Under the pieces are notes generated by a model. That model was not told the origin of the DNA, searched no databases, and was given only the letters and a program-made list of their open reading frames with translations. From Tubiluchus corallicola (taxonomy: Eukaryota; Animalia; Priapulida), in the NCBI GenBank assembly GCA_030141605.1, contig JAQGDQ010000036.1:930001-994000 (forward strand): a stretch of DNA of 64,000 nt. The letters run 5' to 3'. Positions 12,995-39,177 of the stretch are shown piece by piece (position 1 is the stretch's first letter; the number at the start of each line of letters is the position of its first letter). The translations under genes and the position numbers were made by a program.

Positions 12995-13147
12995 TCAGCG
13001 AAGATGGTTGTTTGTTTGTTTTGGCTTACTGTTTAACTTGCCATCAATATCATTGTGACTGGTAGCGATCTTTTTGATGTTCTGATTTTCTTCTGGCTCA
13101 CCAGATGAAAGTTCCTCATCAGACGAACTTCGGTCGTCCTTTTGTAC
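12995..13147 (-). CDS. CERS: CerS last coding exon (acidic tail)
   Basis: ttaaacag|; translates VQKDDRSSSDEELSSGEPEENQNIKKIATSHNDIDGKLNSKPKQTNNHLR*. Confidence 0.9.
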   Translation of the reverse strand, partial: VQKDDRSSSDEELSSGEPEENQNIKKIATSHNDIDGKLNSKPKQTNNHLR

Positions 13148-16100
13148 CTGTTTAACATGGATTAACAAAAGTTAATAATTAAGCCGAAGCAGCTAAAAAA
13201 AGATTTTCAACAATAGCGATGACTTTAACTGAGACAGCAAACTTAAGAACACAATTCATGTGCACTAAACTAGTGGCAGGTACAGTATAAACTATGACTT
13301 CCAGTGTTTGTTTGTTTTAACTGTAGGCCTACATATACCACTGCTAACCTGTATACCTAGCATACAAGTACGTAAGTTTTTACATTGACTTTAGCATCAA
13401 TTATACATTTTTACTTAATTTTATTATGTTAGCTTTCATAATTATTGCAAATTTATGGCATAAATGGTTAACTAACATTAATATGACAAAAATGCATTTG
13501 GCTAACTTTGATACAGGTCTCAGATTGTACTTTGACAAAGTCAATGGTAAGTCTTTGTCAAGACAGTGTTTAGGAAAATTGACTTTAAAACTATCATTGT
13601 ATCGTCAAAACTTTCAACTCATTGCTGTAATTATGTGCATAAAACATTCTTGTTAGAATGTTTACCTTTAAAACTCATCAAAGTGCTTATCCTACAGGAA
13701 AAGATTAAAAATTCTACATATTTATAACTGATATCACATCTTGTAACAGAGACATTTCAAAGACATTCAGTAAACATTCAAGAATCTAAGTTCACATAAC
13801 ATGGCAAATTTAATGTAAATTTCTATTTAAGAAGTTTTATCATTCATAATAAATACTACTACCTTACCTTGAATAATAAAGATACTGGCAACCTAATTCA
13901 AAAAACTCCGACTACATGGAAAAAAATAGCAAGTTTCCAAACTGTATTGAAAAATTCATATAAACTTTTGGTTTTCTGTTTTGCATTTGGTCAAAATATT
14001 TGACTAAGGATGCAACAACACTATTTGGAATTTTTTCATAGCTAAGCGTCTACATAAGAACAACATTTAGATTATTCCTATTTTCTACTTTTCCTTATAT
14101 AATTCTACATACTATCTATTTTTCATTTACTACACAATTTTTAGTTCAGCACAACATGCAAACAGACAATGAAGCTTTCAAAGAACCCAAGTGTAATCTT
14201 TTTACATTTTCATAAATATAGATAGCAGTCTGAAAAAATGTGTTAAAAACAACAGGTTGACACTGATATAAATTTTATGCAAAACTGCAAAGAAAAAAGG
14301 CAATTAAAGTTGGTAGCACTTACAGAGAAAGGGCTCTTATTTTTGAAGTCATCGCAAATCATTAAATGTACACAAGTAAAACTGATAAAAAATAATGTTC
14401 ACTTATATAGTCCTTTTCATCGAATTTCGAAATTTTCATAAAAACTCCTGAGAACTCTGAAAGCTTCGTACAATACATAAATACGCCGCAGATTCATGAA
14501 GAGTTTGCTGATAGATTCACACTGGGTTCTAACAAGTGTTTTCTTTATAGCAAATAGGCAAAGGATTAGACAAAGGGAGTGATACCAATTGCCAATACAC
14601 CTACAAACGTTTTCTTCTCTATTCTGTTGAATGTTACAGCCTGATAGTAAAATTTACGTAATTGATGGTAATCAATAATTTAGGTTACACGTTTTTTACT
14701 TATGCTATTCAAGTTGATTGCTTTAGCACAGAACTAAAGCCAGGCTATTTTGAATAGACTAATTTTCAAAAATTATATTTTTGTATATTTATGAATCACA
14801 AGTGGCATTGTATGCAGTGCTAGAGCATACCAAACAGGTTGCATGTCAAGCAGAATTATTGTGACCAAGCATTGATCCCGGCCCTAAACTTTTCTTTCAC
14901 TGGTTTCTTGCTATTTTTTGGGGGTGACCAGGTCAAAATTGACCCTACTAATACGAATTAACACTCGCCAATCAAAGAAAACAGCTAGCATTGTATATTT
15001 AAGGTTTAAAATATTATCAGGCTGGCATTCAACAAGTAAATTAATTAATTAAAGTAATTAGACACATTTTATGACACAATAAAATGTACAGTTAAAAGTA
15101 TACTCATGCATTGTGCTGCTACAACCGAGAGGCTACCTGTATTACTGCCAGAAGTACTTTAGAACCATGCTTTTTTGATAGACATCCGTTGAAAGAAAAC
15201 TGATCAATAACTGCTGCTGAGAAGAAATAGGCATACATTGACGGAAAGGCAAAATAAAATGATTTGTACGATAGACGCAACACGACAAAAATATCCCACG
15301 ATACACGAAGTAATGCGAGCATCAGTGACCACTATTTTCATGAAGCAGATTCATGCAGAAATAATAATAAATTTAGCCAGATGTGGAGCGATGTAATGAT
15401 AAATGCGTAACTTCTGTGGAAAGTGAAAACAAGGCGAGGCAGTGTAACAGGGTAGCAGCACAATACATGCATGAAGCTCATAATTTCATTAGCCTCAATT
15501 AGTTAGCATCTAAAAACAACCAGTCTACTGGCACAAAATTAAACTCTATGTCAAGGTCAATTTATGCAGAAATACTCTGTTTACGCCAAAAGCGCATTTT
15601 TAGCTTGTTATATATAAAAGTTGCAATGGCAAATGTTGAGGAAGTTCTGCGGAAGGACAGCTAAGGGAAAAAGAAACAGCACAAACTGCAAGCACAAGAC
15701 AGCATTGACATCTACCAGCTAAAACTCAAAACAAATGCAGTATCATTTTGCTTTGCTATTCTGTACCATATTAAAGGAACAGCAGTCGATCACACCACCA
15801 CAGTACTGCCAACACCACAGTAAGAGTCAGTGTTCTTATTTGAACCTGCCCTAGTGTAAACATGCTGAAAAAAGCTGCATTCTTCACCAAGTAAAACATT
15901 CCCTTAGCATTTGTCTCACGTCAAAGTTGTTCAAAAGGGTCTTACGATCATTTTATAAATTACATTTAAGAACATTCAAAAAATAGTTTTCTATAGAAAA
16001 TGCACAGATCATCTTTGCACTGGCATTTGAAATATAAAGTACTGCCTAGTTTTGCATAACAATTTCTGATTGTGGTACTGACAGTAAGGTGTGATGTTAC

Positions 16101-19100
16101 ACTCAATCTACCTTACATACCTGACCGGCTACGGTTGCAACATAAGCTATTTTGCATATCATATAGAACCATACTAAGTGGAGTATTTGCAGGAGAAACA
16201 GGAGAGCGAGGAAAAGCATTCGTGATTTGAATTCTCCAATGATGACATGAGCTTCAAACATGACTGTGCGTAATATCCTGTAGGGAATGGAGGCAAAATT
16301 TATGAGTAATTAGGAAAGATCGGCATACTGTAAAGACTTATGCAGTAAGCATTTCCTGAAGTCATGGATGTTTTTCTAAAAGCAAACAAGCTGAGCACAA
16401 GCTAGGAATCACATGATAGCACAAGTTTTCTGAAGGAGAATACAAAGACAGTGCAAGGTAGAAGTCAGGAAAAATAGTTTAGTTTAGCAAAATAAGTGCA
16501 AACAAAACAAATTAATTGCATAACTTCATCGTGATATTTAACAACATGTCATAAGGCATTAGTATAAGCGCAATTAAAAATTTATGCAGATGAGTTATTA
16601 TGAGGCATGCATAATTATTATGTGCAAGAGAAGACATGTGACATTTAGCCTTATAGTAAATTAAGCTTTATTGTAAACTAAAGCAAAAAATGAGTCCGTT
16701 AATCATGTTCTTGTTGCACTGGTAATATAAAATCTATGCTCATTCAAACAAAGTATTGATCAAGCTTTCACCCTAACAACCCAGTATCAAGGACAATGCC
16801 ATGTAACTATACTGTACAGAACAACTTAGTGTGTGGGTGCACCATCCAATATTTAAGCACATGTACCAGTGAATGGATAAATATTGATCCCAGCACAAAG
16901 CCCACACTGAAAGCTACAAAATGGAAAAGTGTTCTAAAAGCACATAATTACGTTTTTATTATATTTGTTCATGTGAACTATACAGCGTAAAGTATTAGCT
17001 AAATAGCTGCATTATATTCTAATAGCAAAAATTATATGAAAAATAAGTATTTAAGTGAAAAAGTATTGTATGTCATGAGAAACAAAAAATATTGAGGCCA
17101 TTATAAATCGAGTAATTTTATTATCCCTCTATTAAACTGGTGTATTTCAAATCCTTGCCTTGGAAACAAACTGTTCCACTAGCTGTCACACTTTTTAGCT
17201 ACAGCAAGTTAAATTGCATTGTAACACCAGCCTTATGAAGTATTAGCTTGTGCAGCAAATAAACTGAAATAACACATTGCATTTTAAAAAATGGCATGCA
17301 AAGATACTGTACTAATACACACATAACAGTTAAATAAATGGACAAATACACATTGACAAATGGTTGTAACAGCAGTAGATAATGCGGACATGATCAGCAG
17401 ATTTATCTTGAAATCATCTGTTCTCCAAGATGCAGTAGCCAGCACGGTGGTTGGCGGCACGGTACATGATAAACAGTACCTTCTCCAGAGGCCTACCTTT
17501 CCAAATCGAACTGCCTTAACAGCTATCGCCATAATCATTACGAACCAGATGATATGCAATATTTGAAGGACAACCAGCAGGGCATTGTAGACAATATAAG
17601 CCGAGAATACAGACATGTTGAGCAACACGTGTGCAACGGTCAATGCAAAATATAGAACCCTACAGAAATATTAAATAGCATATCACATATATGCACCATA
17701 TGGCAGTAGTTACTAACGTATTACATGAAAACTCTCAAATGTTACACCAGACCACAGTTTCAACATTTACAATAAAAAACGATGTGTAGTTATTATTCAC
17801 AATTTGAGTTTATGCATTTCCAAAAGTCACATGCAAATTAAGTAAAGTGACTGTCAGTCACTGGCAAGTGGAGAATTATTAGTTACATGATATTTAAAGT
17901 AATATTATAAAACTTACGGAAGAAAAACATGTTATCCCATTTCATTACACAGAACACGTGCACTATTAGCAAAAATTAGCATCTAGCAGTGACAACCAAA
18001 AAGCATGCAGTAATCTTAAGACAGTGAAATAAGGTTGGAATGAAGGAAAACATTCAAGATAACAACGAATAATAATAAAAAGCTAAAGAAAACAATGACA
18101 TGCCACATTACACCATTTTTTAAATTTGCCCAAAAAACAAATTGCTTGCATTTTTTTGCAGTTTTTTACCAATTTTCGCTAGGAAATGAAAAACTAAAGA
18201 CATAGATAACGCGAATATGTTCATAAAATCTGCAAACATGACTTGAAGCCCAATTACCAAACAATTAGCACAATCATTTGAACTTCAGGAAAAACTAAAC
18301 ACATCAGCCGTAAAATACATAAATAAATAAAACCATAAACAAATATTTACATTAAACTTTACTGTGCATTACCATGACCCAGGTCGTGCATTGGTACAAT
18401 TATCTATTAAAACATTAATGACAATATAAAATTAATAACAGGCAATGACAAATATAACAAATTACTTAACTCTATACCATTTTTCAAGCAAAAAGATGTA
18501 GTTAATTAAAAATTAATGACTGTCGTAAAAACAAAAAATCAATTTAAAAAATTTGAAAATTTTTTAGTTTACTGATACAGTTATTATTGCAGAATATTAA
18601 TTTACGTTTTAAAGAATCAGAAGGTCCCAGATGTAATTTAATTTTATAATTTAAATTATTAGCAATAAAAATTGGTAATGCATATTGCTATATAAATAAA
18701 AAATTTTACCTTACAGGGAAGATGACTAATCGAGTGATGAACCATACAACCGTGAAAATGATAAACATTAGATCACACAGTTTGTCCAAACGACAATATT
18801 TGGCCATTTTTGCAGCCTAAAAAGGAAAACAATATTAGCACATACTTTATCTACTAGTAGACCTATACTGTGCAAAAATAAGAAAGGAGTTGCATTGTAT
18901 AGGCTGTTATCAATGCAGTAAGAAAGAACCTAATCGGTGCAGAAGTGCCAGAGTACCAGTTTTTGAGTTTTCTGAATAATTTTGCCTAAAAAAGACCAAA
19001 TCTATATTTCTAGTAACCCAGCCGAATCTGGATGCAATAAACTCATTATTTGGTGAATTATTTATTAGTTTGTATTCTTTTAAACCTATCAAGGTTACAA

Positions 19101-22100
19101 AGAAAGTTTACTTTTGGAACTGCATAAATTAAACGTTGTGATAAATAAATATCACTTTCTAGCTTTATATTAATTCTAAGTCACATTATTGTTAATAGTT
19201 CAATAAATATTTTGATGTGGTTTAGCTTTTTATTTGGTATAAAGCCCCAGTAGGAAAGAAAAATGAAGACAGCATTGAAGAAACAATACTTGGAAAACTA
19301 CACAGTTTTTTGTTATTATCTGTGCTAAGCGGTTGACTGATTCAAAGTCAAACTAAACCTTCATTTAAATATAAGCTCTTACAACGTATTATGTTACAAT
19401 GAAAACCAAACTGAAATAATTTTACCATAACTTACTGCTAAATTTGTTTTGTTTAATTTTTTGTCCTTCGTTGTTTATGGTAATAAATTTGAACACCTGC
19501 CATTTTTTCATTAAGCGAGACGAATGACGTAATCTGTCCACTACGGAGTGAATTTTTTTACACGTGAGTACAACTTAATAACCTTCGGTTGCCATGCATT
19601 TGCATAAAGAATGCGATAAATGTTGTGTATTTTATGGCTTCTTTGCTGTTACTGTCAAGCGGATATATAGTCTAAACACTGTTTCACTACATTCATGAAC
19701 TTCTGGCTGTTCTGCTGACGTCCACTTTCTTGGGCATCGCGAGCTTTTATAGCCTCTGCACAAATCTTTGGATGTTTGTAACTGAAGTGCTGAAATAGAT
19801 TTTTTATTGAACTCATACTACACTGACTTCTTTCTGATACTGTCTGCAGATGGGTGTGTTGGTAAACGTCTTTCCAGTAACCAGACTTGTTTTAAATGGA
19901 AGTAATTCCAAATACAGATTTTAGCACCAGACTTTCTAACAGTAATGAAATCAAATTCCACTAGCTCTTTTTTGCAAAATAGTGTGCAGAATACTCAAAA
20001 CTTCATCAATGTAGTATGAACACTTGATATTAACTAGGTAGTGACACAATACACGTAGCTTTCTTGCACCCATTATGCATGGTAGGTTGGTTGTTTCTAT
20101 ACAGAACAATTGTTAGGTGATACATTGGTAATTATAATGATCAATTCTATAATACACTAATGAAACTTGAAATTTATTTTCAAACTGCACAAGTGATTTG
20201 GAAATCTTGGTAAAGCTTAGATTATTCAGTAGCGACGCCCCACCCGTAATGCAGTAGTCTTACCTCATCATACTGCAGGGGCTGCAGAAACAATCAGTTA
20301 TTAATGTACAATCGAGGAGTGGAGTAAAGGCTATTGAAACAGATTTAAATGCATCACGTATTGAAATTTTAGGACTCAGATAAAGAACTGCGACAAATGG
20401 AAACTAAACCTGTGCGCAATTTTAAATACCGTAATTATATTTTTTCACAATGTACATATTTACTATTTACCAGCTATCCTAACATAGCTCCACCTGTGCC
20501 AGACCCAAGTACAAACGCAGTCAACAATTTTGCTTCCCCAAGGCATCCATATTTTGAAGGTGATAAATGACTTATTTCACACTAACAGTGATTAGACTTT
20601 TGGTTAACTATAGAAGCTTTGTGTGCAGATTACGTAATTCTCGCGCACTTGTCAAAGTGGTGAAACAAGGAGGACTTCACGACAATATACACATTCTACA
20701 TGTACACGTTCTAAATCAGAGAGAAAATCGTAACTTGTTTCATTTATGATATTGTTTTATATTAAATTAACTATAAATTCTTTGTGTAATCATAATAACA
20801 TGTCAAAAAAATCTCATTGTCTGTTGGGGTTGTATAGGCCTTCAAATGTATTACTTGTATCACTTACAGAGTCAAGACACTAAACACTTTTAGCTTGCTA
20901 ACTATTGTTTAGACTGATATCAGCAAACCTAAAGAGTGATGATGGCTATCTGCCAATGAGATTTATACTTATGACCTTTTCAGTACAAAAATGTCAGAGC
21001 AAAATGTTATGCAACTGACCTCCATCCAGTAATCAACAGCATCGTGTATAACAAGCACCAACGTTCCAACTCTTATCATATTGCCAGACCACGAGAACCC
21101 CAATAATAATAATGTACATATATGATGAACAAACATTTGCCAGAAATCCTATAAAAAAAGTAAATATTTTTAACATACAACTGCAAGACACATTTAAAAA
21201 ACACATCCATCTATTAAATATATATATATATATATATATACTGTTACTGCTGTAGGTGGTAAAATTAATGCATTCTAGGAAAGTAAAGGAATATGGCATG
21301 AAAGCCCCGCACAAGAGTTTCCTACTACAACTACTATTAATAATAATTATACTACTATTGGCTCCTTTCAGCAGCATGCAGGCTTAATTTGATGGTGTTC
21401 ATACCGATTATAAAACCACAAAACACCAGATAATATTAGTAGTTAGTAGTGGCAGCACATGTGTTAAGGCATATTGATCTGCGCGCTGAAGTTAGTTTGG
21501 CACCCTAGGTCCTGGGAATTCAGTAAGAATACTCACTTTTCTTTTCACATCCAAGAACTGGGAGAATGTCAACGAAAGATAAAAACCCATTTCAATCATG
21601 TAGTACCAATAAACTTCACTAGATAATGGCTGAAATGGAAAATCTAGCCAACAGTACGTTGTATCCCAAAACCAAGGTTTCTGCAAAAAAAATCACATAA
21701 ACCAAGGTTACTTTGTGTATGACTGTGTAATACAATTTAAAATTTTACACATTGCATCAGTTACAGTAATTAATCCGTATTTTTTACCTACAGCTCTATT
21801 CAGCCACAAATTTCACTGGATGTAATTTATATGCCATAAGCATAGTAAAACAAAAATTAAACAAAGCAAGCAGTATATTCAGAATCTGTAAAATCATCAT
21901 ATTTGTGTGTATAATGACTACTTAAAGAAACTGATATTAAAAGAAAAAAATTATGGATACTTACATCCCATAATATGGCAAGTCCATATATAAAAGCTGA
22001 TAGGTAGTACGAAAATTTCCAACTGCAAAAATTAGAAAGAATGACAGCCATTCACATAAAAAACAAAATAAAACCAAAACAATATGTACAAAACATTAAA

Positions 22101-25100
22101 CGTGCTTTCCATAAACCGCAACCTAAAATATCATTGTATCAGGGGAGTAGCTCACTGCTGAGTAGTTAGTGTACATGACTGACTATAATAGTTAAGTAGG
22201 TGGGTTAGGCATCGAGTTTGGTTAACACTTAGAAGCTATGCATTAAAAAATATGAATTTCTCTAAAGACTGTGCAAAAATACCCATTTTAAGTGTTTGTT
22301 TATTTAGAAATTTGGTAAATATGCAAACTTTATAGTATAACATTTTGTAGACTTTTTTAAGCCCTAGACTATAATTTTGTTTATAATGATTTGGCTATGT
22401 ACGGTTGTCTAAATTATAGGCAAAAACTCAAATTTGCAAAAAATAATCCACACTTAAACAAAATATACAGCACACAGCTTTGATGTTTCAGCTAATTTCT
22501 CTGCTGCATTGAAATAACTCACATAGTGCCTATTTGCAAAAAAAATACAAAAAGCAGGATGCGCAAAATTTGGCCACTAGTTGAACTTTTCTAGAGAAAT
22601 GACCTTTTTGGGCATATTGCAAAAAGTTACACTACACCCTCTACCCATATTCTTCCAGCATGGTATATGCACGGTATGCATTCAACTTCTTTATTTGGTG
22701 ATTAGACAAGTTCTGTCATGTTCTTCCAGCATGGTATATGCACGGTATGCATTCAACTTCTTTGTTTGGTGATTAGACAAGTTCTGTCATGTTCTTCCAG
22801 CATGGTATATGCACGGTATGCATTCAACTTCTTTGTTTGGTGATTAGACAAGTTCTGTCATGTTATTTTACAACTTATCCATGTTACCGGTATCATGTAT
22901 GGCATCTACAGGCTTTCCTAGAAGCACCTTTATATTTGTTTACTAAGGATCGCACATGCCATCAGATAGCTTTTAAAAGTGTACTAAATGGATTGGTGAC
23001 TGTTTCTGGACAATTTTGCTTGACCTACTACCTCCAACTATTTATGTCGTTATAGGAGGCTGAGTAGACATCTGAACATGGCTGCTACAAGACACCTTTC
23101 CCACTTTAATGTCATCTAGAAGATTATCTTGGAATGTTACCATCCCACCACAACTATTCTATATCAGTACAGCAATAGCCCGACACAGTCGCTCAATTTG
23201 CTGTTGGTAAATGACAATGGCAGTAAATGAAACAGTTCAACAAGAATTTATTAATTGTTTTTTCAAGTCTGATAATCATTTAAATTATTAATAAAATTTT
23301 AAAGGCTTCCTTGTTCAGTTGTTTGGGAATTCAAAAGTTGAAATTATTCTAAAATCATGTAACTGAAAATTTCCTCCCCATGTTAATTCAATTTTTTTAA
23401 CTAGAAAACTTTTCAATAAATTTGAATAATGTGTGCACATAATTTTAGACAGCACAGCGTCATCTTTCTGCTCTACAGCTCTGTTTGGAAAGATTTGAAA
23501 TATTACTTAAAATATAAGATTTGATAAGTAGCAGTACTTCATCCAACACAATACTCACAATACCACATATGTACTATGTATGTTAGTAAACCAACAAGAC
23601 AAAAAAGCTGGTTTTAAATATCTTCTACTGTTTGTACAAAATGGTGCTACTGTTAATATCATTATTTAAGTTTTGTATTTAAAATCATAACATTTGGTAT
23701 AGTTTGATAATACTCACAAGCTTTCAGTAAATTTTCTTAGAATGCTTGGACGGTCTTGATTCCGTCGCTGACGAAACCATCGCTCTATCTGTCGTGCAGA
23801 CAAATCAAGTTGTTTGGATAAACCGACGACTGTTGTATGATTCGGCTTTGCACTTTTTCTATATGCAGCTTCTAGCTGTGGGTTTGCTGGTGCAGGTCGT
23901 TTCTTTACATCTTTTAAGTCAAATAGTTGTCCTACCCAAGTTGCTATAGTACTGAAACAATTAGTAAAGACTCAGATTATACTTGCTACCCAAATCTGAC
24001 AGATACACTCATCAGTAAGTGAGTGTGCGCAACTGCTGAGTTATAACAGCGGCAACAATACTTGCAATATATCAGATAATGGCAGTTTCAGACAGTACTT
24101 CCAAAAACTGGGACAGATGCTCTGTCATTTGATCAACTGCAGACACTGTGTCCTTCTCATGTTTCACATTTTCCACTGCCACTGCAATGACTGCACAGAT
24201 TATATCGGATCCTTTTATACATTTTAAATGGAGCTTTCACAATTTTGCTTATTTGGGCAAAAAAAATTAAGATAAAAGCTAGTTTTATTTTTGATTTTTT
24301 TTCTTGTTTCTTGTTGAAGTAGCACTTGCTTAATTACTTTAATTACTGATGCAGCCTAAAACAATGTAATATGCATCTAATACAATTCTTGAAATGTTAC
24401 ACACTCATGATGCCGAAACAATTTATTTATAAGCTGCATGCTGACAATCTGGAATTATATGTCTCTTGTTTAGTGACACTGAATCATTTATTAGCAAATG
24501 CTATAAACATTTTATTGTTTGGTCTGCACATTGACAGCTTCTACAGCTGCTCATAAATATGCTATACTACGGTTGGGACACGGCATTCCTCAATTACAAT
24601 AAACCTTAAATGGGGTTACATTGTCTGCTAACAATAATTATAAAGACAACAGTTTGTTTAAACTTAAACTTTTCTAAACATTGTAAAGATTAAGTTGCTA
24701 AGGTCAATCATTTTGTAAATGCGATTTTTTGCTGTTTTTATACAAAGTATAAAAATGCCAACTTGATAATTGTATGGCAATTTAGTCACCTCATTATGGG
24801 TTCATATTTCACATGTACGTTACTTGCCTGTTGTAAACTTTGTACTTTTAACTACCTGAACAGATTGCGTATCTTAAATTTGCAACCACTCTAAGCCAAA
24901 TGAATAATTTTTGATTTTAACTGATTTATAAAACATGCCATAAATTAGTAGATTTGCCATTTGATGATCCTACCCACAATTACAAATTTTTTAAGCATTA
25001 TTTAGATTAGGTGTATAAACTTACAAATATTCTTTTGTAGAGTAGTTCCTACCTCTAATGGTCTTAATCATGGCACGTACAAGTATCGCCAGGTTCTGCA

Positions 25101-28100
25101 CAAGACTAGAAAGCTGCGACTTTTTAAGCCATTATTAATTATTGCCTGAAAGCTATTTTTACTTTACTGCAGTCTCTCCGAAAAAAAAAACTTTACATAC
25201 AAAGTTATATTACTTGGCATTACGCTTACCTGTTTGTAATTAACTGGAGACTCAAGTAATTGGAAAAGAAAATTCTTAATAATTTAAAATGAATAATATG
25301 GTCAATGGTAAAGTGGTACTGTATCGCCATCCCAGTGTGCACTACTGACTTACCAAAAAACACATTATTAATCTTGACAAATAAAGCAATTTATACTTTT
25401 TTTGCTTATTGAGGGTAGAGTGTACATGTTAGACCAAGAGGGAACAGCGACTAATGCTCATATTATTTTTAAAAACTTCACGCAGTATTATTTAAACTTG
25501 CTTCAAACGATTCACCGGTAAAATGGCCGCACCTAATGGTCACCGAGAAACTTTAAATTTACAAGTTTTATACAGTGTTACCAGTGGCAGCACGTAGCTA
25601 AAATTACATAAAATTACTGGGGGTGCTGCTTTAGAAAATTTTCAGTCATTGTGTTAATACTGTGTAAAACGAAACAAACATATATAATTTTAATGTTGTA
25701 GATACGTTTGAAAATCAGGTGTTGAATGGCTTCTTTTCTCAACTGCAACTTTCTCATGGAGAGACAACTGTGAAAAATTAAGCTGTTGTACTTCACGCAG
25801 AACTTATTTCTTGGGAATGCAAGGCGTTCATTATTAAATAATTTATATTTTGAGCACACATGCTTAATTTACTCTTTATCACATCTAAGAATATGATGAT
25901 ACATGGTAAGCACGTGGCAACTGTTACTGTGATAGAGACAGTACTTTTCTACCTAACAGCAGATGCTAGCATACAGCGTGTTATCTCAGACATGTGCGAA
26001 TGGCCGCATGCGCACAACAGCCAAACACTATGTTGCTTGGGCTGTAAAGCAAATTGTACTTCCCTCACATGTTCCAGTTCCACACAAGTATAAAAAAAGG
26101 CTAAACGAAAAAACTTATTATATTGAATTTTATCGATGATGATGCGTGAAAACAGGGGGTGCTGCAGTACCTATACACGAGCCCCACTGAGCGTTACTGC
26201 TAATGCAAACTCTGTACGCAAATAAGGCAGCAAATAGGGGACACAAAATTTCAGGACGAATTTTAAAAGCTTTATTTAGGAAGAGTGTTTTCTTGTGCTT
26301 TAAGTTTCTGCATTTAACGATGGAATTTTTACTTTTAGTTAAAGCACAAGAAAACCCTCCACTTACATAAAGCATAAAAAATTTGTCTTGAAATTTTATA
26401 TCACTTACATACTGCCTTTTTAGCATGCAGGGTTTGCGTCGGCAGTAATGCTGTATAAAAGTTGTAAATTTAAACTCCCGCGATGATCGTTAGGCGCAGC
26501 AATTTTTATGGTGGATCGTCTGATACAAGTTCAGATAACATTGTGTGAAGTTTGAAAAAATAATCAGAGCATAAAATTACCTAAATTCGTAGCACACATG
26601 TTACTAACTAAGTAAAATTTTAAATTACTGTGTCTTGTGAATAAGATTAAAAATATGTTTTTGCTTAGTAAGTGGCGAACCCTGGAGGGTGAGTCAGCGA
26701 CATTTTACCAATTGGCACGAACATTTTAAATTATTATTTCTAGTTACATAAGTCTTTCCAGCAGGTAAGCGAAATGCTAAGCAATACAGATTTGCATGGA
26801 AAGTTTTTTGGGACATAATTTAACATTGCCTTTTCTTCCCCTGATTTACGTTTGCGTAGGTGACGTCAAGTAATAGCGCCGTTGAAACAGTATTGCGGGG
26901 GACTTAAAATGAAAACAAACAAAAATTCCTTTTAACGGTACCCCTTTTCTTGTCCTTTAAAGCATATGTTACAAGCAATGAGTAAAATTTAAACATTTTA
27001 TAAAATTTCTAGCCATTTAATGCAACACGTGTAATTTTGGGAAAAGTGTGAAATGAGTCTTTTTGGTGTGACTTTTCCACACTACCTACAAGCTTTATAT
27101 AATAGTTAGAATTTATATAACATAATGTAGTGACTTTGGCAAAATGTAACATGAACATAATTCGTGTGAAATAACACTCTTCCTAGACATTTTATACATT
27201 ACCTAGGCACTGTATCACGGAATGCACAGAACGACTTAATCATTAGGGCTGTGGAGTCGAAGTCAGAGTTGCTAAAAATTAGAGTTTTGGAGTCGGGACT
27301 TAGGAGTACACTTACTGTTAGAGGAGTCAGTACGAATAGATAAACTGACTGGAGTTACTTTGAAATTTTAAAACAATTACACCTAATTGTTATTAGATAT
27401 GTTATTAGATTGTTATTAGATTGTATATTAGATCACGCTAAGTAAATGTCTCAGCAAAAGTGAACTGCCGATTGTTGATGCTTAGGTGGCCCACGCTAAG
27501 TAAATGTTTCAGCAAAAGTGAACTGCCGATTGTTGATGCTTAGGTGGCCGCTTCTTACCCTGAGCAATTACAACATGTTGTTAGATACTTGTTGTTATTA
27601 AAAATATTTACACTATGTTTCAATTTGTTTATATTTGCAAATATCTGTGAAAAATTACCAGACAAGTATCAATTTATAATTACATGTATTATCATAGTTG
27701 AGGAATTCAACTTTGTCATAATTACCTTTTCTGGGAAAAATATTTCAGTGACATATTAACACTATTAGTGCTTATTTAGGCCTAGTAATTTTTTACTCAT
27801 TGGGTCATTGGCCTGACAAATGTCTGACAAGCAGAACCATAACACACAGGCATAGCTATATCCATTGAGACTCAAATTCGGAGAGCTTTAGCATAAGGAC
27901 TAGCCTGACAATTCACTTGGTAGTGATGAAATGCCACTGTAGCTAAATATGAAGAGTACTACAAACTATTATTTAAAGGCAGGAGTCGGAGTTGGAGTTG
28001 GGACTCCTAAAATCTTAGGAGTTGGATCTTCAAAAATTTTAGGAGTCGGAGTCAACAGGCGGACAGATCCTCTAAAATTCTGGGAGTCGGAGTTGGGAGT

Positions 28101-30166
28101 TTAATGTACCGACTCCACAACCCTGTTAATTAGTATATTAAATTAAGGAAGCAGCCCAAATAAGATGGTGGTGAGTTCATTGTTTTATTAGCAACATCAC
28201 AATCTCTGACACGCTACTCAAATCAGGTGGACCACGTTCTACACCTGGAGGCTGGAAGGCCTGCTTTCCAACAATTATACTTCTGAAAAAGGGGTGGAGC
28301 ATCAAATAGGAACAGCTAATTTGGCCTTTGGAAACAAAGATCTAAATGAATTTTATGGTTTATCAAGCTGCCATCTGTTGAATCTTGCTCTACAAGGCTG
28401 CAAAACTAGAGTCTCAATTTATTGCAATTTATCTATCAAACAGCTCAACTTTTCCCAACAGCAAGACCTTTCCTTAAGCACTTACAACTAGCACATTACC
28501 AATGAGCATACGGACATGTAGACATTCACCATTCTCTAAGGCTTAAAGTAATACTGCCGCACATATAAAATGCCTAGGAAAATTGTGTCAAGAACAACTG
28601 AACATTTATTTTATTTTTACATTAACTGCAAAACTACATTCAATAAAGTGCGTAGAAAAAGTAAGCACATAAATTATCTAAGAATTTCATGCTTTGTCTA
28701 GACTAACTTTTGCATTAAATATAACACATAGGAAAAGTGTATAAGGTACTATTTTATGTAATTAGTACCTGGTTTGCTTGGACACTTAATAAAATGCCCA
28801 GGCATAGTACAGTGTACTCCTTTCACACTTTGCCTGTAACATATCTAAAATAATATCTTATACACTTTTCCTAGAAGCATTATACAATGCAAAAGTTTGT
28901 CTAGTCAAAATACGTAATTCTTAGGTAATTGATGTACTTTTCCTAGCATTTAACAGAAATGACGAAGAAATTTTAGTTAATGTAAAAATAAAACAAATGG
29001 TCAATTAATCTGATATTATTTTTCTTTTTGAATTTAATGTCAGTTTTATCTGATGGGTGTGTGAATTTGAATGCCTCAACGTCCTTGCAAATTTACGTGG
29101 TAAATACGTTCTTTTCTCTTGTTTTGAGAAAGTTCCAGTGTCGTTCCTCTTCAGTGGTGATATTGATCACTCAGGAGGCCAATTCTTGCATGAGACACAC
29201 AGTGGCACAGATGGCATTTGTGACTTTTTGAGGGGTGCAGCTGAGCCTGTCGAATGTCGAATGTCAATGTTGCCGTCATTTCTTTTTTCATCTTAGAATT
29301 GCTGGGATCTACTGTAGATGATCCCATGCCTGCTGGATTGTTGCTGGGCTTCTTTATCAGATGTTTTGATTTAGATGTCTGTTTATTTGAAAGTGGTTTT
29401 TAATTAGTCTTTGTAGTGGTACGTACAAAAAACTATATAGTATATGATAATTTAGTAACATTAAACAGAAAACTAAAAAACAAAGTGTGAAAAATGTGCT
29501 CTGAAAAAACTTAGAAATGTGATAGCTAGCAAACCTTTAATCGATATACAAAATATTTCGCGATTGAGCTTTAAACATTCGCAAAGCTTCAAAAAATTGT
29601 TTTCCTTACTGCTCGGAAATTTGGGATTCTGATCATCGGAACAATATCCACTTCTATTATTTTATTGTTAGTCACTTACTTTGTACCGAATGCTTGGTAT
29701 TACAATAAACATTTAAAAATTTTAAACAAATGTTATCACAACATTTAATTTTGATTATCATCAACACATCACTAAGATAACTGTTGCATCTAGATTAAGC
29801 CAATTTTTTCATTAATGTGTGTTCAATGATGTACATAGTCACGGGAATTGCAACTAAATAACGTTCAGAAAACTCACATAAGTCTAAAGTATTCTACTAC
29901 TACTAATAATGCATTGTTTCCAAGTTTTCAGCTTTGACCACACCCGCGAACATGAATACATGTGAAAATTCTTACCGTTCATATATAACTCGCGTTACTA
30001 TTATGAAAATAGCTACAGGCAAAGGTGTTAGAAGATCACTGAATTCTACATATCTAGTTTCATTTGTGCTTTTAATATCTTCCCATGTCACGTTATGCGG
30101 AAGCCAAAATTTCGGATTCCAAAACCAATTATTTGCATCCCGTATACTATCAAGCACAACAGCCAT
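12995..30166 (-). CDS. CERS: Ceramide synthase (homeodomain plus TLC/Lag1), exons 30166-29976, 23951-23718, 22022-21965, 21680-21537, 21148-21020, 18816-18710, [17659-17497 or 16277-16121], 13147-12995; 392 or 390 aa
   Basis: N-terminal WFWNPKFWLPHNVTWED, homeodomain-like [26 protein letters not shown]...YYMIEMGFY, Lag1 motif RKDFWQMFVHH...VGTLVLVIHDAVD, and an acidic tail KDDRSSSDEE. All junctions are GT-AG with consistent phases. Confidence 0.95.
15789..15819 (-). promoter_or_regulatory. Putative intronic RNA docking site for CerS exon 7a/7b choice
   Basis: Pre-mRNA 5'-UGUGGUGUUGGCAGUACUGUGGUGGUGUGAU-3' is complementary to elements just downstream of both 7a (17445-17470) and 7b (16071-16095). 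Confidence 0.65.
16071..16095 (-). promoter_or_regulatory. Putative selector element B (starts at intron +26 after exon 7b)
   Basis: 5'-AUCACACCUUACUGUCAGUACCACA-3' forms 8 + 16 bp with the docking site (3 G-U pairs, no mismatches within the helices). Confidence 0.65.
16121..16277 (-). CDS. CERS: CerS exon 7b (mutually exclusive variant)
   Basis: ccctacag|G ATA...CAG|gtatgt; 157 nt, phase 2 to 0; translates (R)ILRTVMFEAHVIIGEFKSRMLFLALLFLLQILHLVWFYMICKIAYVATVAGQ. Confidence 0.9.
17445..17470 (-). promoter_or_regulatory. Putative selector element A (starts at intron +27 after exon 7a)
   Basis: 5'-AUCAUGUACCGUGCCGCCAACCACCG-3' pairs across the same docking site with one mismatch, small bulges and several G-U pairs. 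Confidence 0.55.
17497..17659 (-). CDS. CERS: CerS exon 7a (mutually exclusive variant)
   Basis: ttctgtag|G GTT...AAG|gtaggc; 163 nt, phase 2 to 0; translates (R)VLYFALTVAHVLLNMSVFSAYIVYNALLVVLQILHIIWFVMIMAIAVKAVRFGK. Confidence 0.9.
18710..18816 (-). CDS. CERS: CerS exon 6
   Basis: Translates AAKMAKYCRLDKLCDLMFIIFTVVWFITRLVIFPV(R); AG|gtaaaa, phase 2. Confidence 0.93.
19590..19965 (-). mobile_element. Decayed hAT-type transposase N-terminus (BED zinc-finger relic) in CerS intron 5
   Basis: Broken frames read KSGAKICIWNYF, TPICRQYQKEV and SSIKNLFQHFSYKHP, matching the BED finger pattern (W-x-YF...C-xx-C...NL-xx-H-xxxx-HP) with frameshifts and stops. Confidence 0.5.
21020..21148 (-). CDS. 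CERS: CerS exon 5 (catalytic HH of the Lag1 motif)
   Basis: Translates DFWQMFVHHICTLLLLGFSWSGNMIRVGTLVLVIHDAVDYWME; |gtcagt. Confidence 0.95.
21537..21680 (-). CDS. CERS: CerS exon 4
   Basis: Translates [48 protein letters not shown]; |gtgagt. Confidence 0.95.
21965..22022 (-). CDS. CERS: CerS exon 3
   Basis: tttgcag|; translates (F)WKFSYYLSAFIYGLAILWD; |gtaagt. Confidence 0.92.
22650..22864. repeat. 71-bp tandem repeat, 3 copies
   Basis: ttcttccagcatggtatatgcacggtatgc... starts at 22650, 22721 and 22792. Confidence 0.95.
23718..23951 (-). CDS. CERS: CerS exon 2 (homeodomain-like)
   Basis: ttcag|T ACT ATA...; translates TIATWVGQLFDLKD...[35 protein letters not shown]; |gtgagt. Confidence 0.93.
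25582..26189. mobile_element. Non-autonomous hAT-like element (MITE)
   Basis: TIRs cagtggcagcacgt / acgagccccactg; 8-bp TSD agtgttac / agcgttac; second copy at 58723-59271. Confidence 0.8.
26343..26956. mobile_element. TTAA-flanked MITE (Kolobok-like)
   Basis: ttaa|agcacaagaaaa ... ttttcttgtcct|ttaa. The interior (aagttcagataacattgtg...gagtcagcgacattttacc) is shared with 54774-55197. Related termini occur near 26265-26303 and 57030-57085. Confidence 0.65.
27244..28125. mobile_element. Non-autonomous hAT element with GGAGTC subterminal repeats
   Basis: TIRs tagggctgtggagtcg / cgactccacaaccctg; degenerate 8-bp TSD ttaatcat / ttaattag; internal 58-bp duplication at about 27434-27549. Confidence 0.75.
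28590..29010. repeat. Long imperfect inverted repeat (foldback/MITE) in CerS intron 1
   Basis: Nested arm matches: ttttatttttacattaact/agttaatgtaaaaataaaa, aattatctaagaatt/aattcttaggtaatt, ctagactaacttttgcatt/aatgcaaaagtttgtctag, taggaaaagtgtataag/cttatacacttttccta. Confidence 0.85.
29976..30166 (-). CDS. CERS: CerS exon 1
   Basis: MAVVLDSIRDANNWFWNPKFWLPHNVTWEDIK...YE(R); GAACG|gtaaga, phase 2. Confidence 0.93.
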
Positions 30167-33386: not shown

Positions 33387-34802
33387 TCATGCAACAGCTG
33401 TGACAATAATAAAAGGAATGTCCTCATTTACTGCTGTTTCAATTTCTGGATGTTTCTCCGGCTTAGCATCAATACGAGGGACAGCAAGAAACTGGTGTCT
33501 GGCACTTAGCAAGCGTTGAACCTCGAGTTTCACTACAACTTCATGTGATATACTGTCCTGTTTAATGTCTGATAGTGTTATAAAGCTGTCAGGTTTTTCA
33601 CCAGGATAGCTCATCGGTTTGTCTTGGTCCAAACTGTGTTTGGCAAAAGCTGCCGGGTCTTGCTTTTCCAAACTTCCATTTGCCTCTGCTTCATATATGT
33701 AACAGTAAGGTAGATTCGTCCCCGTTAGTTTGTTTTGCGTGGCGCGCAAGTAGCGACATTGTTGCAGCTCAGAAAGTTCTTTTAAGAATACTTCGTCTGG
33801 AACGTGTTTACCGTTGAGCATTGATTGACCACAGTCATTTATTTTCTCTTGGTTTGTCGTTGCTTGATCTTTGCCTGTAAACACAGCAAAAATTAATCTT
33901 TCACTGCTCAGTCTTACAATCGTGAAATGATGTATATACAAACAAGAAGAGCGAGTTCGCATGCCATGGCTTACAGCTATAGTTTTTTACAAGAAAAAAA
34001 ATTAATATTCTAATAAGAAACTTTTTAAAACACTCTTCTCTCGGAACATTAAAATACCAAAAAAATTGTATTTTATAAAATGATTACCACTGAAAACCTA
34101 TAGGCTGCAATCAGTTTCCAATGCAGTGTTCATACCTCGTTTATGCTGTTCTTTCGTACTGCTTGGCGCTTCATTTGGCATTCTTGGAAGAATTTGTGAA
34201 ACAGGCAGATTGCCTTTCCTCAATAGTTCTTCTACATGACCTTGTCTTCGTCCCTGTTTCTTTGCCTTTTTAACTGTGTAATCGAGGTAACGTTTGATCA
34301 CGCCATCAGTTGTAAATTCAGAACTTAGGCATCCAGCCCAAGCTAATCGACCTCCAACATTTTCTTTTGTGTGGAACAAATGGAGTGGCTCCATGTGCAT
34401 CTGCTCAAAGATATAACCTTGTCTGCTCGGTCTTCTAATAGATACTTCTGTGGTACCGAAATTAATCTGACTCACTTTTGCTTCGTCGTAATTTCGATTT
34501 TCCGTGTCAGACTGACGTTCTGCCTTGGTTTTCCCATAGGACCGCACATCGTGAGAAGCTATGGCAGGCTGCTTTGTTGTCCCCTGTAGGTCTTCGTAAC
34601 TCTTTAGTCTTTCTTCCCAGCGAGTAGCTTCCTTTTGTAACCTTGCAAGTACGCGCGCATGATTGTACTCCAAACGTTCTAGTTTTTTCTCGTGCTTTAC
34701 AATTTCTTGGTTGCCTTTTCTCAGTGCTTTCGTGCTGTTTCTCAATGTCCACTCATGTATCATTCGGAGTCGTTGTGCTGGATCCATATCTTTCGGAGGC
34801 AT
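33387..34802 (-). CDS. Uncharacterised coiled-coil protein, 2 coding exons (34802-34136, 33874-33387), about 384 aa
   Basis: Two long ORFs in AT-rich DNA are joined in frame by CGAG|gtatga ... tgtttacag|GC (phase 1). First ATG is at 34802 (the ORF track starts at a GTG). N-terminal charged helix HEKKLERLEYNHARVLARLQKEATRWEERLK. No family recognised. Confidence 0.65.
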
Positions 34803-35792
34803 ATTCACAATCCTAATTCCGCAAAATATTAAAAAGATAAAATTTCTAAAGTGCTATCGTTCGTTTAAAAATTTATGTAATTCCTTGCCGTCTTGCAAGG
34901 CAAATGTTCGACCACGTATAACCTGCACTTGTTTCGAAGCTATGCGGCTGCTTGCCCGAATGCGCGTAGGTCTATAACACATTAATTTTTAAAAGATTTT
35001 CATTTTCCGTAATTAAATTGCAGGAAATAGATCGATCGGGAACTCAGTTGCCATTAATGAAATCTGTTCTTGGTTAGAAGAAGCCATGGAGCGCCTATTC
35101 TACTGACGGGTTGGGGATGCAGTTTGCAGAGCTACATAGATTTATACATCGGTTTAGTGCTCAGTTTATTTGCTTGTAGCTTGCCACGCGTGCTGGCAGT
35201 TATATTAGGCTTTTAGGTATAATTTCGGACTTTTTCATTCAACATTGCCTGGTCGTTTGCGTTATTACTTAGTAAATCAGCTTACAGACTTATCCATTAA
35301 ACAAAATTCGTTTTCACCCGCAAACTCCCCAAATCCGTAAGTAGGATTTCCTGTTATCATGTATAGGCCTATTTTGTATAATTCTGGGTTCTGTAAAACG
35401 TGCATTTACGGTTTATACAAACATTGCATATTAGGAAAGTGAAACTATCTGAAAAACGTGACATGCAATAAAAAATCGGATGTCGAAAGACATAATAATA
35501 TACATCACCGAGTGGAATGCCTGCATAATTTTTGAAAAACACTGATACTGTACTCTCATCATACAACACTCTGTCTTTATAAATCGACAATCCGACCTTG
35601 TATGGAGTACCCTAACGGCAATCAAATTTGGGCAGGTCCTTCTGCCTGGCAGTCTCAAAATTTAATTGGCTCACTAGTCAGGTAGGGTTTTGAGTAGATT
35701 CTACAAGTTTTTTGCTGCTACGTTAAGCTTCTTTTGTCAGTATTTTTATGGAAGGAACTTCCATGTTCACTGTTCATTGGTTCCTATAGGTT

Positions 35793-36215
35793 GAGCGTTT
35801 GTCAAAGTTTCACTCTGGACATTCTGGAGTCAGGCAGGGTAGACGCTAATTAAACAAATTTTTTTTTGGTTCCTAAAAATCGAACGTTTGTCAAAGTTTT
35901 ACTCTGAACATTCTGGAGTCAGGCAGGGTAGACGCTAATTCAACAAATTTTTCTTGGTTCCTAAAAATCGAGCATTTGTCAGAGTTTTACTCTGAACATT
36001 CTGGAGTCAGGCAGGGTAGACGCTAATTCAACAAATTTTTCTTGGTTCCTAAAAATCGAGCGTTTGTCAAAGTTTTACTTTGGACATTCTGGAGTTAGGC
36101 AGGGTAGACGCTTATTAAACAAAATTTTCTTGGTTCCTAAAAATCGAGCGGTTGTCAACGTTTCATTCTGGACAATTTGTGGTTAGGCAGGACAGACGCT
36201 TATTAAACAAATTTA
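35793..36215. repeat. 88-bp tandem repeat, about 5 copies
   Basis: gagcgtttgtcaaagtttt...gagtcaggcagggtagacgct...ggttcctaaaaatc units start at 35793, 35882, 35970, 36058 and 36146. Confidence 0.93.
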
Positions 36216-37833: not shown

Positions 37834-38640
37834 TCACATTTTGTACCCAGTCAAACCAATCTTCTGTGACAATCCACCAGACATTTTAATAAACTCATTT
37901 TGCGGTTTTCTGTTAACATGCCACCCTTCACCAATTGTTGATCGAATGTCCACTGGCCAGTTTTGCGACGCGTGTAGGGACGCCCTTTCTTCTAACAATT
38001 TTGCATTGGCTTTTTTTATTTTTTCCAGATCTCTTTGCTTGTGTTGATTTTGTGCTTCGAAAGCAATGCGATTATAGGCTTCGAAAAATTTCACTTGTTC
38101 TCTAACAAACTGTCGCTCTCGTTGCCGCGCTGCTGCTAGTCTTTCGAGTTTAGTATCTGGCGTTGGTTCAGTTGAGTCCTCCTTTGTGTTTAATTCTTCT
38201 GTTCGAGGTGATATTAGTTTTTCCATTCTGCTTACTCCTGGCTCCATAATGTAGGAACTGCTGTACCGATATGGGTACACTGTTTTGTCATTATAATTAT
38301 TCTGTTTATAACCGCTGTTGTTCGAAACTGACATATAATTGGATGAATGCTGTTCATGCATGTTTCTTTTGCTCAATAGTTCGTTATGTTTCCCGGCCTT
38401 TGTTTGCAGCTCCTCGAATCGTTTAGTCATTTCACCACGTCCATTGCGAAAGTTTAGCTCATTGTCTTCTAGTTTTGTCTTCATGCGTCTCAGAAGAAAA
38501 CTCGGATATGACAAGTAGTTTGCGTGTCTGAAAGGTATTGGTGTAGAAGCGCGTTGGGAGTAAAACTCATTAGACCATCTGCCTTCTCCAGAGGTGTTGG
38601 AAGTTTCCCATGAACGATTTGACAGGCTTCGTCGATGCAT
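37834..38640 (-). CDS. Uncharacterised 268-aa protein with charged helical segments (single coding exon)
   Basis: 807-nt ATG-to-stop ORF, non-repetitive, no transposon motifs; helical segments LLRRMKTKLEDNE...KRFEELQ and KLERLAAARQRERQFVREQ. Confidence 0.65.
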   Translation of the reverse strand: MHRRSLSNRSWETSNTSGEGRWSNEFYSQRASTPIPFRHANYLSYPSFLLRRMKTKLEDNELNFRNGRGEMTKRFEELQTKAGKHNELLSKRNMHEQHSSNYMSVSNNSGYKQNNYNDKTVYPYRYSSSYIMEPGVSRMEKLISPRTEELNTKEDSTEPTPDTKLERLAAARQRERQFVREQVKFFEAYNRIAFEAQNQHKQRDLEKIKKANAKLLEERASLHASQNWPVDIRSTIGEGWHVNRKPQNEFIKMSGGLSQKIGLTGYKM

Positions 38641-39177
38641 TAGTTCACACGGCAGACGATCATTTAAATTACTAACGAAAATTGATTACTACAAGCTTAT
38701 CCATTTTCAAATATCACAATTCCGGCGTACGTTATAATTATTTTATATTTTGAAAATGATTTTGATAATCATATAATTAATGTGTTATAATATACTTTTC
38801 TAGATGTGATGTAGTAGGTCTAACGCACGGCAGTCCTTGGTTAAGTAGCTTACGTTGTTATTGCTAGCCTAGAAAAATCGTTTCATGCGTTGTGTAGCGC
38901 CGCCTCCGTTAATGTTTCTTTTAATTAACGGCCAATTACTTAATTGGGTTTCGATGAAGAGGGCTGCATTATTAACTGCTAGCTAGTTCATACGTCACAT
39001 GCAGGCTTGCCCAAATAGTAAATATTTAAAAAAATATAAACACCGACGCCACCCTTTCTCATAAAATTAATAATTAATTTAGATTTGAACCAGTTTCGTT
39101 TTCAGCAATTCGCAGTAGGCTACACATATATAGAAAGGTAAAAATTTGTGATGTGCATTACGAAATGTTAGTACAAA

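Follow-up and report, generated by a model that had tools for sequence, protein, structure and literature searches.

A ceramide synthase gene of the priapulid Tubiluchus corallicola carries two adjacent homologous versions of its seventh exon, 7a and 7b, which have equal phases, canonical splice sites and open frames. The reading that we favor, to which we assign a probability of about 0.6, is that this is one CerS5/6-like gene with two ancient exon 7 copies, one of which is likely spliced into each transcript, and that the two resulting enzymes likely accept different acyl-CoA chains.

A ceramide synthase gene with two versions of exon 7

The gene runs from 30166 to 12995 on the minus strand of the window (the whole 64-kb stretch of DNA that was analyzed). 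It is CerS5/6-like and has eight exons, all on the minus strand, with two candidates for exon 7. Exon 1 (29976..30166), which holds the start codon and the N-terminal TM1, was placed by its GT donor, its open frame and alignment to the ceramide synthase of Priapulus caudatus, and a contig of run X2 contains its joint to exon 2 (29976/23951). Exon 2 (23718..23951) has AG/GT ends and encodes a Hox-like domain; it aligned with the part of the P. caudatus orthologue that bears PF00046, and models matched the CerS5/6 homeodomain structures (Hox-like domain, TM1-TM2). Exon 3 (21965..22022) was defined by its AG/GT ends and open frame. Exons 4 (21537..21680), 5 (21020..21148), 6 (18710..18816) and 8 (12995..13147) are all represented in run X2 contig 10, where exon 4 is joined to exon 5. 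Exon 5 carries the catalytic HH and the two Asp residues of the Lag1p motif, exon 6 encodes TM5b-TM6 with a conserved Arg and ends in phase 2, and exon 8 encodes an acidic tail and the stop codon.

The isoforms encoded in the window aligned residue for residue with those of P. caudatus at the HH, the two Asp, the TM6 Arg and the TM7 Trp of the TLC domain (PF03798), and H217, H218, D245, D248, R281 and W326 were invariant among 56 homologues. By its TLC and Hox-like domains, the gene product is predicted to be a ceramide synthase of the CerS2-6 type. Its C-terminal tail reads DxRS, followed by Ser rather than Asp and then by acidic residues; P. caudatus has the full DxRSDxE, the C-terminal motif of the CerS2-6 type (PMC8789539).

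Other features of the window were recorded alongside the gene. Intron 1 contains a high-copy repeat (24671-27925) with a summed contig depth of up to about 9000 in run X1, and tandem repeats of about 60 nt occur at 22680-22860 (three copies) and 35780-36140 (about six copies). Upstream of the gene on the minus strand lie three open frames of 199-283 aa (33387-33986, 34098-34853 and 37834-38685) and, at 42735-44582, two frames that by eye resemble fragments of a LINE-type retroelement.

Exon 7a (17497..17659) is 163 nt long, lies between TAG and GTAGGC, and encodes the end of TM6, a 13-residue luminal loop (VAHVLLNMSVFSA) and TM7. Exon 7b (16121..16277), 157 nt between CAG and GTATGT, encodes the end of TM6, an 11-residue luminal loop (EAHVIIGEFKS) and a TM7 without the usual Asn. 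Each is bounded by GT-AG sites, takes up the frame from exon 6 in phase 2 and hands it on to exon 8 (13147) in phase 0. Joining exons on their coordinates in a script gave one open protein of 392 aa from exons 1-6+7a+8 and one of 390 aa from exons 1-6+7b+8. Inclusion of both introduced a stop 7 codons into 7b (nt 22-24), 133 nt upstream of the last junction, and omission of both shifted the frame of exon 8. The 7a and 7b proteins are 39-41% identical, and each is the other's sole significant match in the 64-kb window (tblastn, E 5e-08; next best, E 0.02). They also match the C-terminal end of the Pfam TLC domain PF03798 (E 0.0019 for 7a and 5.8e-05 for 7b, both below the whole-protein cut-off). 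A search for a third copy found no open phase-2/phase-0 exon of 139-187 nt in five intron stretches of the gene. A preliminary description of this DNA had proposed two intact paralogous exons between exon 6 and the last exon, entering in phase 2 and leaving in phase 0 such that both or neither would break the frame, with 7a two residues longer. Coordinates, translations and reciprocal tblastn agree on the paralogous pair, the joined translations demonstrate the effect on the frame, and the extra length of 7a is that of its 13-residue loop against the 11 residues of 7b.

Run X2 contig 10 joins exons 4, 5, 6, 7a and 8 across four GT-AG introns, and the junctions 18710>17659 and 17497>13147, which had been put forward for checking, are thus spliced in this contig. 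It showed no differences from the window over 165 nt at 7a and 1-6 in each of the other four pieces. The RNA nature of run X2 is presumed, though its contig skips four introns. Because the assembly amounts to only 13 million letters, the missing coverage of 7b in this run carries no weight against 7b. A 90-aa protein that is 95% identical to 7a (two residues differ) also continues from 7a into exon-8 sequence. A transcript that included both exons would likely be removed by nonsense-mediated decay, since its premature stop lies upstream of the last junction. Exon skipping would escape decay by the junction rule because the stop would fall in the last exon; isoforms of this skipped type are annotated in oysters, one scallop, Ptychodera and one termite.

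The best match for 7b among 22 candidates was the CerS6-like isoform X2 of P. caudatus (75% identity, E 4e-16). The cluster to which it belongs had one further member, isoform X1, which is of the 7a type. These two isoforms (XP_014680864/5), both automatic RefSeq models, have 288 N-terminal and 44 C-terminal residues in common, and the difference between them is confined to the intervening segment. Between the window and P. caudatus, identity was 69% for 7a with 7a and 75% for 7b with 7b, compared with 37-45% for the cross pairs; in the N-terminal part common to the isoforms, 209 of 288 residues were identical (73%). Both orthologue pairs were starred in two trees. On these comparisons 7a and 7b are each conserved in a second priapulid, in line with the long-term conservation that had been proposed for both. 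The 6-7a-8 contig, the P. caudatus isoforms and the logic of the reading frame together support mutually exclusive use of the two exons, as the preliminary description had claimed.

The specificity loop and alternative explanations

In alignment with human CerS6, the exon 7 segment covers the last part of TM6 and all of TM7, and the loop falls at CerS6 E290-S300. The primary paper on the specificity loop is reportedly that of Tidhar in 2018. In CerS5, the 11-residue specificity loop is E299-S309 (PMC10122649), and in the cryo-EM structure of CerS6 the walls of the acyl tunnel are formed by TM4, TM5 and TM7, with the TM6-TM7 loop sealing it and limiting chain length (PMC11919693). The alignment with CerS6 and CerS5 and the published loop position bear out the earlier suggestion that the swapped segment holds the specificity loop. 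The catalytic His and Asp residues sit in the common exon 5, outside this segment, and models of P. caudatus X1 and X2 showed the CerS6 barrel fold (pLDDT 87.4 and 86.6; TM-score 0.86 and 0.87, by target length). Inclusion of 7a or 7b would therefore be expected to give an enzyme with the same catalytic core and a different tunnel-capping loop and luminal TM7 half; for 7b in T. corallicola, we infer inclusion from the automatic RefSeq model X2 of P. caudatus.

Conservation within the segment was type specific at one end. Between the two species the loop kept 9 of 12 residues in 7a and 9 of 10 in 7b, compared with 2-4 of 12 between paralogues, and the luminal half of TM7 kept 14 of 18 (7a) and 16 of 18 (7b), compared with 7-9 of 18. 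The cytosolic half of TM7 was not type specific: both orthologue pairs were identical at 9 of 17 positions, and 7b of the window matched 7a of P. caudatus at 12 of 17. Since the loop and luminal TM7 are type specific and the cytosolic half is not, selection appears to keep the luminal end different.

We also examined 245 full-length proteins, 15 of which were not parsed, and obtained 209 distinct homologous segments. Exon 7a keeps the family start of TM7, and its loop spacing, longer by two residues, was found in 2 of the 209. Exon 7b keeps the usual loop length and is without an Asn present in 202 of them. The seven exceptions are five alternative isoforms (P. caudatus X2, Lineus X1-X3 and Lingula X2), a Lingula paralogue and an Owenia protein. 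The preliminary description had placed the divergence in the loop; the loop does differ, but it does not differ alone, 7b lacking this Asn as well.

The 7b loop matched that of coelacanth CerS5 at 4 of 10 positions and that of an invertebrate homologue at 7 of 11. Because the invertebrate homologue is the closer, the likeness of 7b to CerS5 is best read as an ancestral family pattern. Directly after the loop, where the Asn is missing, 7b departs from CerS5/6 and 7a keeps the consensus. The proposal that 7b is CERS5/6-like and C16-preferring is weak in view of the 4/10 loop match, the different TM7 start and the missing Asn, and the chain preference of each isoform cannot be told from sequence. 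That the two isoforms differ in acyl-CoA preference is nevertheless probable, since this loop seals the acyl tunnel in human CerS6. The simplest reading, two active enzymes with different acyl rulers, is likely, and the isoforms would then yield different ceramide products.

Some other property might be tuned instead. The two exons could be exclusive and functional and yet govern the use of 2-hydroxy, branched or unsaturated acyl chains, the sphingoid base, turnover, product exit, or a luminal partner or glycan, an alternative that we consider unlikely but worth weighing. The whole of TM7 is encoded by exon 7, and with it the Trp responsible for orienting the sphingoid base and the proposed exit between TM4 and TM7; the cytosolic TM7 half contacts the sphingoid base and the CoA side (PMC11919693); properties other than chain length could differ because exon 7 encodes this half too. 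The absence from 7b of an Asn kept in 202 of 209 segments, with five of the seven exceptions being alternative isoforms, points in the same direction. The type-specific conservation argues otherwise, falling on the loop and luminal TM7, at the end of the acyl tunnel, and being absent from the cytosolic half. The luminal loop of 7a contains an N-M-S glycosylation sequon (window 17617-17609) that is also present in P. caudatus X1, and its occurrence in both priapulids would suit a role for a glycan. In the models, however, the loop with the sequon is very short and has a membrane helix on either side, a setting that disfavors glycosylation.

It seems to us quite improbable that one of the two isoforms, with 7b the likeliest candidate, is a minor form, or one of weak or no activity, whose role is to modulate its partner within a dimer. 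CerS6 forms a homodimer (PMC11919693), and 7b is without the near-invariant Asn and has charged E, K and R residues at the border of the loop and TM7. Against this, 7b retains the active-site His and Trp of TM7 and is 75% conserved, on a par with 7a, and its P. caudatus orthologue was modeled with high confidence in the loop (pLDDT over block 301-310, 94 for the 7b type vs 80 for the 7a type). Duplicated exons can be retained through divided expression, and the pair could in principle make the same ceramides and be kept only by a division of tissues or stages. This is very improbable, for each loop is nearly constant between species yet unlike between copies, the usual sign of distinct constraints, and in bivalves the loops of one version (v2) are identical at 9 of 10 positions between scallop and oyster. 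It is barely credible that T. corallicola keeps 7b as a relic that is dead or not spliced: direct transcript evidence from this species covers 7a only, but the frame and splice sites of 7b are intact and its identity to the P. caudatus X2 segment (75%) compares with 73% for the common part.

Candidate RNA pairings for exon choice

On the favored reading, in which one gene makes two enzymes of different chain preference by including one exon 7 at a time, a docking site downstream would pair with one of two selectors and so exclude one exon, and inclusion of both exons would lead to a premature stop and decay as a backup. Steric exclusion was ruled out by the 1219-nt intron between 7a and 7b, and minor-spliceosome incompatibility by the donors, which are both GT and do not follow the U12 donor pattern.

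We listed ungapped helices without bias from exon 6 to exon 8. A single intronic site, the candidate docking site D (15105..15126, minus strand), took part in the first and the third best of them, with 15122-15114 common to both helices. The candidate selector Sa (17362..17374, minus strand), 123 nt after the 7a donor, would form a 13-bp helix with D (-20.2 kcal/mol). The candidate selector Sb (15452..15469, minus strand), after 7b, would form an 18-bp helix with D (-29.7 kcal/mol), the top stem of the intron. With the helices predicted in one genome, and D chosen after its helices were seen, Sa:D was matched by 8 of 1000 shuffles and 2 of 92 natural chunks (33 of 200 by a bulge-tolerant measure, which is not significant), and Sb:D by 0 of 200 shuffles and 1 of 19 natural chunks. 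Sb:D was present in both the MFE and the centroid structures (z -2.86). Nine bases of D belong to both pairings, and 7b would be looped out by Sa:D.

A local stem (15790..16096, minus strand), with arms at about 16096-16071 and 15819-15790, begins 25 nt after the 7b donor. It too was present in the MFE and centroid structures (z -2.16; 3 of 100 shuffles); its core helix alone was matched by the top stem in 20 of 200 shuffles. A 156-nt run X2 contig maps to 15309-15464, within the stretch that the Sb:D helix would enclose, and shows 10 differences from the window; it may be an intron fragment or unspliced RNA.

A downstream docking site pairing with selectors after each exon has been described for 14-3-3zeta, Mhc, MRP1 and Dscam 4/9/17 (PMC6071210). 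As in those genes, one site downstream of the cluster is here complementary to sequence after each alternative exon, and the pairings overlap. Those cases are backed by conservation and mutation, whereas ours consists of helices predicted in one genome, one of them statistically modest. As modeled, we give even odds to competition between selectors for the docking site as the exclusion mechanism.

The same swap in other phyla and its significance

We expanded 21 clusters, picked mostly for their "isoform" labels, and compared the 19 species that had at least two records of one gene. The same segment was swapped between identical flanks in 10 of these 19, a proportion that, given the choice of clusters, is no estimate of frequency; exon structure in these species was inferred from the swap boundaries. 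There were two versions in P. caudatus, four in Lineus longissimus (XP_064647647-50), two in Lingula anatina (XP_013382240-2) and two each in Pecten maximus, Argopecten irradians, Saccostrea cucullata, S. echinata, Ostrea edulis, Crassostrea virginica and Magallana gigas. The swap was not seen in the records of the other nine (Mercenaria, Ruditapes, Mya, Mytilus galloprovincialis, Ptychodera, Cryptotermes, Octopus vulgaris, Haliotis rufescens and Physella). Judged by these protein records, no fewer than four animal phyla have the arrangement (priapulid, nemertean, brachiopod and bivalves), a recurrence that the preliminary description had missed.

Scallop and oyster versions grouped by type (v2 clade, 97/87), so the bivalve pair is older than the scallop-oyster split. 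In 53-column trees, constraints that placed 7a and 7b together (p-AU 0.26), the Lingula versions together (0.50) or bivalve v1 and v2 together (0.27) were not rejected, and 7b joined Lingula X2 only at 88/72. Such trees are compatible with either one duplication or repeated duplication across phyla. The priapulid RefSeq pair is orthologous to 7a and 7b.

Several further variants were noted in the same proteins. A second Lingula anatina gene on the same scaffold carries an X2-type segment (P0210 vs P0258), so exon-level and gene-level duplication coexist there. P0093, from Chamberlinius hualienensis, and P0170 each show the TM6 end and loop repeated in tandem, with 26 additional residues immediately preceding an ordinary exon-7 segment; this may reflect an alternative splice of the loop alone in millipedes that gene prediction has read through. 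In scallops the isoforms vary at the N-terminus too, with a choice of two homologous segments in the TM1 region (P0009/P0130 vs P0124/P0127 in Pecten, P0125 vs P0128 in Argopecten). The usual loop length of 11 is exceeded by several residues in P0186, P0203, P0188 and P0195 (a set that includes land and freshwater snails), in P0179 (Lingula X1) and in P0122 (Lineus X1).

Homologous exclusive exons are also found in the metabolic enzymes PKM and KHK, where the exon substitutions affect regulation and affinity; these, unlike CerS, are soluble kinases. Both appear in the human table of tandem-duplicated exons, and that table, in the one supplementary file searched, has no CERS or ceramide entry (PMC8373072). 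A splice event described for human CERS2 is a skip that abolishes activity (PMC7876150). Mammalian CERS1-6 have the same fold, catalytic residues and 11-residue TM6-TM7 loop position (PMC11919693, PMC10122649, PMC9252958), but they vary the loop across genes, whereas in the present case the variation lies between exons of a single gene. A further parallel is COQ-2, whose exons 6a and 6e are mutually exclusive in C. elegans, helminths, annelids and molluscs (PMC7434440). In both systems a pair of internal exclusive exons alters one part of a transferase embedded in the membrane, in scattered invertebrate phyla and not in mammals, with a single or repeated origin. They differ in enzyme family, and the CerS copies vary in length and number (2 to 4). 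The ubiquinone/rhodoquinone switch of COQ-2 is moreover genetically proven, whereas the substrate change in CerS is predicted. Substrate switching by exclusive exons is thus already known, and the CerS case would be a further instance of it.

The preliminary description had supposed the arrangement to be undescribed for CerS. The literature searched, to which subscription papers and bioRxiv supplements did not belong, gave no description of the exon-7 swap in the excerpts seen (cf. PMC12403961, PMC3517309), in line with that supposition, though isoform sets with the same segment swapped (P. caudatus, Lineus longissimus, Lingula anatina, scallops and oysters) already sit in RefSeq as automatic annotation without comment.

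Tentatively, and at less than even odds, these genes may represent a splice-switched ceramide code of many protostomes, in which a cassette of 2 to 4 exons, either ancient enough to unite priapulids, nemerteans, brachiopods and bivalves or repeatedly evolved at one position, would swap the acyl ruler through competing RNA pairings and replace the six-gene vertebrate system; tissue or oxygen state may govern which exon is used, as happens with COQ-2 splicing. In C. elegans, the anoxia responses of hyl-1 and hyl-2 differ according to the chain length of their products (PMC9252958), and a tie of the exon swap to low-oxygen life is speculation. Most of what is known about how ceramide synthases measure chain length comes from chimeras of mammalian enzymes and a small number of structures. 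The isoforms within each pair or quartet agree everywhere but in about 53 residues and thus amount to natural chimeras, on which the rule can be tested directly and which widen the sampled loop space. If the favored reading is true, splicing would determine which ceramide species oysters, scallops and other invertebrates have, in a manner invisible to gene-level expression studies.
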